DNA from: a virus
Length of the DNA stretch: 11,382 bases
Strand: one strand, 5' to 3'
IMG/VR virus record: IMGVR_UViG_3300029989_000305
Below the pieces are notes generated by a model, which was not told where the DNA came from, made no database searches, and worked only from the letters and a program-made list of their open reading frames with translations. Positions 4,123-4,398 of this stretch are shown here, one piece after another; position 1 is the first letter of the stretch, and every line of letters starts with the position of its first letter. The translations under genes were made by a program, and so were the position numbers.

Positions 4123-4162
4123 TAAAAAATCTGTTATCATATTGTGATAACAGATTTTTTTA
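4123..4162. terminator. Bidirectional rho-independent terminator: A6, an 11-bp perfect stem ATCTGTTATCA / TGATAACAGAT with a 5-nt loop, then T7.
   Basis: Read directly. Stem 4129-4139 pairs with 4145-4155. The A-run is 4124-4129 and the T-run 4156-4161. It lies immediately after the MVP stop. Confidence 0.75.
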
Positions 4163-4164
4163 TA

Positions 4165-4172
4165 TACTTTTG
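4165..4172 (+). promoter_or_regulatory. Candidate Bacteroidota-type sigma-A '-7' promoter element TActTTTG followed by TAAT, 25 nt upstream of the ATG at 4198.
   Basis: It matches the TAnnTTTG consensus and sits right after a terminator, where a new transcription start is needed. The same TAnnTTTG-TAAT is found upstream of the leftward unit at 11184-11191. Confidence 0.4.
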
Positions 4173-4197
4173 TAATATAAATTAAAACTACAAACTT

Positions 4198-4398
4198 ATG
4201 TTATGCTTAGCACATTTAAAAGTAACAAAATATTATTATGAATCTGATGAAAAACATTCAGAACAGTTTCATATTGTTGATGCAGAATCAGAAGATGAAG
4301 TTAAAACAAAAGTAAATAAATACTATGAATCAAAAGATGAGCCTTATTATGTATCACATTATGTTGAATTTGTAGATATAAACGAAGTAATTTCTTAA
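4198..4398 (+). CDS. Hypothetical small acidic protein, 66 aa.
   Basis: ORF track. A candidate promoter precedes it. Confidence 0.45.
   Translation: MLCLAHLKVTKYYYESDEKHSEQFHIVDAESEDEVKTKVNKYYESKDEPYYVSHYVEFVDINEVIS

Follow-up and report, generated by a model that had tools for sequence, protein, structure and literature searches.

In this work, we analyzed a stretch of viral DNA of 11,382 nucleotides (IMG/VR record IMGVR_UViG_3300029989_000305; hereafter, the window), in which two short boxes, each situated directly behind a transcription terminator and ahead of the first gene of an operon, are best explained as TAHHTTTG −7 promoter elements read by the primary sigma factor of a Bacteroidota-type host. 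We put the probability of this reading at roughly three in four, and it would make the source of the window an uncultured jumbo phage (~200–220 kb, 23% GC) that infects Bacteroidota, is related to the Mahaphage-type huge phages, and has all its genes translated independently of Shine-Dalgarno (SD) sequences, in the Bacteroidota manner. Because SD-free initiation and Bacteroidota-type promoters come together here, the host is most probably a member of this phylum.

Two boxes behind terminators

The promoters of the Bacteroidota primary sigma factor (sigma-ABfr), as described for Bacteroides and Flavobacterium, carry a −33 TTTG and a −7 TAnnTTTG element (PMC6847099, PMC9723704), and the latter consensus was refined to TAHHTTTG by Baez et al. 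2019 (PMC6847099). In the window, box 1 (TACTTTTGTAAT) is located at 4165–4176 on the plus strand, its first eight nucleotides, TACTTTTG (4165–4172), forming the −7 element, and box 2 (TACCTTTGTAAT) is located at 11191–11180 on the minus strand, with TACCTTTG (11191–11184) as the corresponding element. These are exactly the positions given in the initial annotation, which had been made from the letters of the window. Both boxes lie 3–5 nt past a strong hairpin terminator, in sense orientation and ahead of an operon-initial gene, and both fit TAnnTTTG at all six specified positions and avoid G at the two free ones. Measured from the end of the 12-mer, the first ATG follows after 21 nt at site 1 (ATG 4198) and after 16 nt at site 2 (ATG 11163), so that the spacing of 22–25 nt from box to ATG claimed at the outset holds for the first site and fails for the second.

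Of the terminators, the one at 4124–4160 (+) consists of a 17-bp hairpin flanked by an A-run on its 5′ side and a T-run on its 3′ side (−17.7 kcal/mol, z −7.5), and it closes a rightward operon that includes a gene for an 817-aa protein resembling the major vault protein (MVP; 1634–4087). The other, at 11194–11231 (−; fold ~11192–11234), has A7 before and T7 after (−19.1 kcal/mol, z −10.2) and lies behind the preceding leftward gene, whose end is at 11250; our terminator scan overlooked this hairpin, as it holds fewer than three G-C pairs. While both had been noted before (at 4123–4162 and 11194–11231) and are borne out by their folding energies, we add a third at 4715–4750, which is bidirectional (−20.9 kcal/mol on the minus and −17.6 kcal/mol on the plus strand) and closes two convergent units, the short rightward one and the long leftward operon. 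A stable hairpin and a following T-run at gene ends predict termination at these sites; a search of Rfam gave only sub-threshold matches, on a terminator hairpin.

The rightward unit predicted to restart behind the first terminator begins with a gene for a 66-aa protein (4198–4398, +), which has an A-rich upstream region with no SD, is conserved in the related loci L006 and L008, and is also called on independent contigs. On the minus strand, box 2 is predicted to drive an operon of 24 small genes (4753–11163, with 10810–11163 as the first), which are tightly packed or overlapping, leave internal gaps of at most 18 nt, and meet no terminator until 4750.

Here, the two junctions share a common layout, consisting of CAATA6-7, the hairpin, T7AT(A), TACYTTTGTAAT, and farther downstream TAAAACT-N8-ATG, with stems that are unrelated. 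The TAAAACT in both leaders (4183–4189, +; 11172–11178, −) ends 8 nt before the ATG, and at site 1 in L006 it stays beside the ATG though 23 nt are inserted between it and the box; this shared heptamer may be part of an A-rich initiation region, or it may be due to chance. At site 1, a TTG at 4142–4144 (+), within the loop and 3′ arm of the terminator and 20 nt upstream of the −7 box, is a candidate for a weak −33 element and appears in the list of matches to TTG-N19-21-TAHHTTTG. There, the T-run of the terminator falls at about −15 to −23, and the hairpin TTG at about −33.

As regards their frequency, the exact 12-mer TAYYTTTGTAAT occurs twice in the window with 0.09 expected, a count of two being reached in 1 of 200 shuffles. 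Once a single mismatch is allowed, the excess is gone (4 vs 2.3 expected), and TAnnTTTG across the window is at the level of chance (23 vs 22.8 expected), with the majority of copies intragenic or wrongly oriented. These last two counts are what one would expect if the boxes were a chance likeness of two AT-rich intergenic sequences with no function. That explanation nevertheless has to contend with the excess of the exact 12-mer, with the placement of both copies in sense orientation just after terminators and ahead of operon-initial genes, with specified positions that are invariant in relatives, and with an enrichment in the upstream gaps of the phage and its relatives that the negative controls do not show, and we regard it as very improbable. 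By itself, the window is suggestive but thin, and its TAnnTTTG counts alone prove nothing; therefore, we extended the data beyond it.

Conservation of the boxes in relatives

The junctions were compared with those of two lineages of relatives (L003/4/7/8 and L005/6), for which DNA identity is ~85% over the MVP-like gene and lower elsewhere. At site 1, the 12-mer is identical in lineage A and in lineage B (12/12 in each), while the 21 nt from box to ATG are matched at 14/21 positions in lineage A and at 10/44 in lineage B, which has a 23-nt insertion. At site 2, the 12-mer is identical at 11/12 and 10/12 positions, and the stretch from box to ATG at 11/16 in lineage A and 9/21 in lineage B (with a 5-nt indel). 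The relatives have TATCTTTGTAAT or TATCTTTGTATT as the box at this second site, so that every specified TA..TTTG position is invariant and one change falls at a free position. Thus the box sequence is kept while its distance to the ATG drifts, which fits the behavior of a promoter element and not that of a translation signal, and such conservation in diverged relatives points to selection on the specified positions. The terminators are retained as well, as L006 keeps the stem at site 1 despite changes on both arms (TATCA/TGATA to TCACA/TGTGA), and the hairpin at 11194–11231 is identical at 37/39 and 37/38 positions in relatives.

The box in upstream gaps of the phage, its relatives, and controls

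To go beyond the window, we reconstructed 30,352 bp of the window phage (85 called genes, 23.2% GC) from contigs recovered via the outermost window genes, with 0 mismatches in the overlap with the window. This stretch holds 52 copies of TAHHTTTG, 16 of them within the 8.5% of sequence that is non-coding, and 11 of these 16 face a downstream gene; moreover, all three divergent gaps have boxes. The comparison set also included the megaphage relatives L021 (501 kb) and L023 (400 kb), a further relative, L022 (a 374-kb contig), and, as controls, the Cellulophaga (Bacteroidota) phage phi17:2, the Clostridium phage c-st (26% GC), which is as AT-rich as the window phage, and the Pelagibacter phage HTVC008M.

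We counted sense-oriented copies of TAHHTTTG in upstream gaps no shorter than 40 nt and compared them with 500 shuffles. In the 30-kb stretch of the window phage, 9 copies were observed with 1.79 expected (0/500 shuffles), and these fall in 7 of 14 gaps; the search for the motif outside the window thus upholds the initial claim. Enrichment is also found in L006 (7 vs 1.47 expected, 0/500), L021 (5 vs 1.45, 6/500), and the Cellulophaga phage (2 vs 0.21 with 13/500 for 1–50 kb, and 6 vs 1.83 with 9/500 for 50–100 kb). L023 has 3 copies vs 1.07 expected (48/500). In the Clostridium phage (3 vs 2.95, 282/500) and the pelagiphage (0 vs 0.32, 500/500), there is none. The bipartite pattern TTTG-N19-21-TAHHTTTG behaves similarly, with 5 vs 1.0 expected in the reconstruction, 4 vs 0.54 in L021, and 4 vs 0.66 in L023, and it does not exceed expectation in the Clostridium phage, the pelagiphage, or positions 1–50 kb of the Cellulophaga phage. 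In fact, a TTG or TTTG lies 19–21 nt upstream not only of the box at site 1 but also of several further boxes of the window phage.

One relative stands apart. L022, whose MVP-like protein is 56% identical, has 48% GC and no TAHHTTTG boxes, and SD-like words precede 8 of 30 of its genes, compared with 7 of 30 control positions. Therefore, phages that carry the MVP-like gene differ greatly in base composition, and the promoter signal varies within the group.

When 17 candidate boxes are aligned, only TA..TTTG is constant, a constancy that follows from how the set was selected, and all of them obey the refined consensus TAHHTTTG. The four bases after the box vary (TAAT, TACT, TATT, CACT, GTGA, CTAA, and others), so that TAAT, which the initial annotation had taken as part of the motif, proves to be over-specified; it is present at the two window sites and at one site of a relative. 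These same boxes bear on the notion that the 12-mers have a role other than that of a Bacteroidota promoter, either as the operator of a phage regulator or a site for RNA processing or anti-termination, or as the extended −10 of a sigma-70 promoter. For such roles, one may point to the boxes abutting terminators within junctions that are conserved in their entirety, to the TAAAACT shared 8 nt before both ATGs, and, for an extended −10, to TTTGTAAT, which includes a TG followed by TAAT. Yet the 8-mer recurs at terminator-free divergent gaps, where a promoter is the only sensible role, and the 17 boxes show no conservation of the hexamer after the TG, its key A2 and T6 varying, whereas TA..TTTG is constant, if also set-defining. 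We scanned three stretches for sigma-70-type matches and found them at chance in each (99 vs 101.7, 139 vs 120.7, and 100 vs 100.0 expected), and because of these chance-level matches and the unconserved hexamer, we rejected the sigma-70 or extended −10 assignment. Campylobacterota are an example of hosts with extended −10 promoters, and they use SD sequences, which are absent here. Taken as a whole, a non-promoter or sigma-70 role for the boxes seems quite unlikely.

Translation initiation without SD sequences

For each start, an SD was counted when AGGA, GGAG, or GAGG occurred at −18 to −4. None of the 31 window genes has such a word, and it is equally rare in the 30-kb reconstruction (1/83), L006 (1/55), L021 (0/44), L023 (1/41), and a stretch of the 735-kb phage LR756501 (2/51), as well as infrequent in the Cellulophaga phage (4/42). 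The pelagiphage and the Clostridium phage have it before 26/61 (43%) and 46/58 (79%) of their genes, respectively. Pairing energies agree with these counts, as the best anti-SD duplex among the window genes reaches only −1.5 kcal/mol and their mean of +0.45 kcal/mol is weaker than that of control positions (−0.96), with means of −8.9 kcal/mol in the Clostridium phage and −4.1 kcal/mol in the pelagiphage. The initial observation that the ATGs follow A/T-rich sequence with no SD is thereby substantiated, and SD sequences are not frequent elsewhere in the stretch examined.

Moreover, the upstream regions of the window genes are A-rich (59% A at −15 to −1 vs 44% in coding sequence) and G-poor (4.9% G at −15 to −5 vs 14.5%), a pattern common to the Cellulophaga phage and the huge phage and opposite in the Clostridium phage. 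An A is found at −3 in 60% of genes, which is not above the neighboring positions, every upstream position being 40–75% A. The density of AUG near starts is low (0.006 vs 0.029 per nt), though this value is biased, since starts were called as the first ATG. On the strength of these sequence features, the translation of all the genes is probably SD-independent and Bacteroidota-like.

Source phage and host

The window has a GC content of 23–28% and small, tightly packed open reading frames (ORFs), 7 of which run rightward (70–4398) and 24 leftward (11163–4753). A megablast of the entire window against a phage collection returned no match, and contigs from relatives of the window phage measure 168–222 kb. 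The lack of SD, the low GC content (23%), and the MVP-like gene led us to consider a eukaryotic giant virus as the source as well, which we rejected on account of overlapping genes in long operons, several proteins that match PHROG families, and phage-type neighbor genes (T4_Y16D, Phage_30_3, and the prohead protease S77).

Among phages, the best matches of four window proteins are to the "huge phages" described by Al-Shayeb et al. 2020 (LR756500–504 and LR756511; PMC7162821). The MVP-like protein (1634–4087) has its best phage matches in LR756500, LR756501, and LR756503 (49–52% identity), the ORF at 8568–9206 in LR756502 (34%) and then in the Cellulophaga phages phi17:2 and phi4:1 (30%), the ORF at 686–1192 in LR756502 and LR756504 (32–34%), and the ORF at 4753–5100 in LR756511 (32%) and then in Vibrio phages. 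The ORF at 436–693 matches actinophage proteins instead. For huge-phage genomes above 634 kb, Bacteroidetes hosts have been predicted (PMC7162821). As the window holds no terminase or capsid genes, the proposed relation to Mahaphages rests on these protein matches.

The MVP-like protein itself (+ strand) contains MVP_shoulder, Vault_3, and Band_7 (SPFH) domains and is 100% identical on metagenome contigs and 88–93% identical on IMG/VR contigs of 39–222 kb. It has more than 6,300 homologs (E ≤ 1e-5), many of them on contigs of 200–531 kb, and is 49–52% identical to those of the 462-kb and 735-kb huge phages. It has no PHROG family match, and a literature search for mega- or huge phages with a major vault protein found nothing relevant. 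This distribution suggests a gene conserved among megaphages of the Mahaphage type.

Scanning GTDB genomes with the MVP-like sequence as the sole query yielded no match, and hence no close chromosomal relative. A profile scan gave 70 loci in metagenome-assembled genomes (MAGs) labeled as Cytophagales, Saprospiraceae, Bacteroidales, Myxococcales, Sericytochromatia, Saccharibacteria, archaea, and others; we rejected these as host evidence, as true cellular homologs are mixed with probably misbinned phage contigs. Homologs with 73% identity were also noticed in MAGs labeled as Promethearchaeota/Lokiarchaeota and "uncultured bacterium," and one with 52% identity in a MAG labeled as Paceibacterota (these being the records L024, L025, P0005, and P0101); all of them most likely reflect phage contigs that were binned with unrelated genomes.

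It may also be asked whether the boxes serve a sigma factor other than that of a Bacteroidota host, being promoters for a sigma factor or RNA polymerase that the phage itself encodes, or for the primary sigma factor of another SD-poor lineage (e.g., a member of the Fibrobacterota-Chlorobiota-Bacteroidota [FCB] group with a related RpoD), in which case the host would not belong to Bacteroidota. Jumbo and huge phages often carry their own transcription factors. RNA polymerase genes and a TFIIB-type transcription factor are listed for the huge phages (PMC7162821), the RpoD of Chlorobaculum groups with Bacteroidetes RpoD and has a related −7 motif (bioRxiv 10.1101/172254), searches of the window and of 8 related loci turned up no tRNA genes, and the GTDB profile matches are spread over many phyla. 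However, the window motif fits the Bacteroidota consensus including its terminal TTTG, which the Chlorobaculum motif TA[ATC][ATC][AT]T lacks (bioRxiv 10.1101/172254), and the enriched TTTG-N19-21 spacing also argues against a non-Bacteroidota sigma factor. Furthermore, the start regions match those of the Bacteroidota phage control and differ from those of the Firmicutes and SAR11 phage controls, and for the nearest relatives among phages, Bacteroidota hosts are known or predicted. Consequently, we think a phage-encoded or non-Bacteroidota reader of these boxes unlikely, and the initial proposal that TAnnTTTG marks Bacteroidota promoters and a Bacteroidota host gains support from the motif enrichment, the absence of SD, and the phage relatives.

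Besides the chance-level TAnnTTTG count in the window, several results weigh against recognition by a Bacteroidota host. With the boxes, the terminators and flanks are also well conserved, which makes box conservation only modestly informative, and no −33 TTG is found upstream of the box at site 2. The box is present in just half of the upstream gaps of the 30-kb stretch, its count in the 735-kb huge phage stretch (3 vs 1.4 expected) is not significantly enriched, and a de novo search for 5- and 6-mers in 48 upstream gaps was noisy and gave a weak signal, with CTTTG in 8 gaps (vs 2.5 expected) and not the top word. About 8.3 kb to the left of the window, a clear terminator (L013, 1645–1672) is followed by 36 nt and an ATG with no TAHHTTTG. 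As for the host, the link by protein similarity is distant (30–52% identity) and rests on a published prediction and not on an isolate, and the spread of MVP-like homologs in GTDB over many phyla holds no host signal. We also noticed that the gap before the MVP-like gene (1570–1633) has no TAHHTTTG box. Such boxless gaps suggest either a second promoter class, possibly phage-specific, or read-through.

Proposed course of transcription

With recognition by a Bacteroidota primary sigma factor as the favored explanation, transcription of the rightward operon would end at the hairpin 4124–4160 and its U-tract, and host RNA polymerase with this sigma factor would bind TACTTTTG just behind it. The T-run of the terminator and, at site 1, the TTG of the hairpin would take the positions of the AT-rich −18 region and the weak −33 element. 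In Flavobacterium, the −7 box spans −12 to −5 (PMC9723704), the distance from box to start is 4–5 nt, and the −33 element is weak (PMC6847099). Because of this published geometry, the start at site 1 is predicted at ~4177–4178, such that transcription would resume ~15–20 nt beyond the hairpin and 4–5 nt after the G of the box, giving a 21-nt A-rich, G-poor leader before the 66-aa gene and a unit that would end at 4715–4750. On the minus strand, the gene ending at 11250 would likewise be followed by the hairpin (11231–11194) and by TACCTTTG, with a predicted start at ~11179–11178 and a 16-nt leader. From there, a 6.4-kb operon of 24 genes would run to the bidirectional terminator, and throughout both units ribosomes would initiate with no SD pairing.

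Other features of the window

Within the leftward operon, 10 ORFs in 5296–7783 (−) form a tandem array in which a unit of ~75 aa is present as 11 paralogs, one ORF being a fused double (6196–6660). The units follow the pattern MFKVGDKVVC ... IYTI ... RF.SL..YR..KLKQL with 27–41% identity, their ORFs overlap by 8–32 nt, their copy number differs between relatives, and they have no match in the phage collection. Downstream of the 66-aa gene, a 354-nt gap that had seemed non-coding holds a decaying gene (4408–4709, +), with in-frame stops at ~4453 (TAA) and ~4501 (TGA). It is 65% identical over 99 aa, with no frameshift, to an intact 102-aa ORF of L008 (12781–13089) and is absent in the L005/L006 lineage; several independent contigs carry the version with stops. 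In the same region, AATATCAGAAGGAT occurs as a direct repeat of 14 nt at 4515–4528 and 4605–4618.

Comparison with known systems and meaning of the finding

When set beside the described sigma-ABfr promoters, the two sites resemble them in the six matched −7 positions, in the AT-rich −18 region, and in predicted leaders of 16–21 nt, which are close to the median of 24 nt in Flavobacterium psychrophilum (PMC9723704). They differ in being phage-borne and not chromosomal, in that site 2 lacks a −33 TTG, in that the starts here are predicted, and in an extra TAAT that the window boxes share outside the described consensus and that is not general in the phage. Similarly, the absence of SD and the A-rich, G-depleted upstream regions are like the SD-independent initiation of Bacteroidota (PMC6847099), although the published preference for A at −3 is not clearly distinguishable where all upstream positions are A-rich. 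With the Mahaphage-type huge phages (PMC7162821), the window phage shares its best protein matches and the scarcity of SD in the 735-kb phage stretch, but it is much smaller and more AT-rich (23% GC vs 32% in the LR756501 stretch).

The arrangement of hairpin and box also resembles the promoter-early stem-loop (PeSL) cassettes that Arbiol and co-workers reportedly described in 2010 for T4-type phages, in which a stem-loop is said to be coupled to an early host promoter. Common to both would be the direct coupling of a stem-loop to a host promoter of the early type, placed between modules of small genes without assigned function; the order and sequence differ, however, and the two hairpins here have unrelated sequences, so that the likeness is only a lead. 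One could imagine the junctions to be a reusable terminator–promoter cassette, whose U-tract and loop double as the −18 and −33 regions and which insulates modules of small early genes in Mahaphage-related phages, though we hold this idea to be doubtful. By analogy to PeSL, such a cassette might also be a breakpoint for the exchange of modules; of a gene beside site 1, one lineage has an intact copy, another a copy interrupted by two in-frame stops, and a third no copy.

This promoter type and SD-free initiation are already textbook knowledge for Bacteroidota, and Bacteroidetes hosts had already been predicted for the huge-phage relatives. What is known of transcription and translation in this phylum is unchanged by the result. 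What is new is this instance, together with a control-backed demonstration that both signals combined discriminate the host phylum for this group of phages. Here, the absence of SD and the presence of sense-oriented TAHHTTTG in upstream gaps separate a Bacteroidota phage from Clostridium and SAR11 (Pelagibacter) phages of similar composition. Moreover, two probable boundaries of transcription units are now marked, which aids the reading of a region made up mostly of genes of unknown function. For this family of uncultured jumbo phages, the two signals thus provide a cheap pointer to the host phylum that needs nothing but the sequence.

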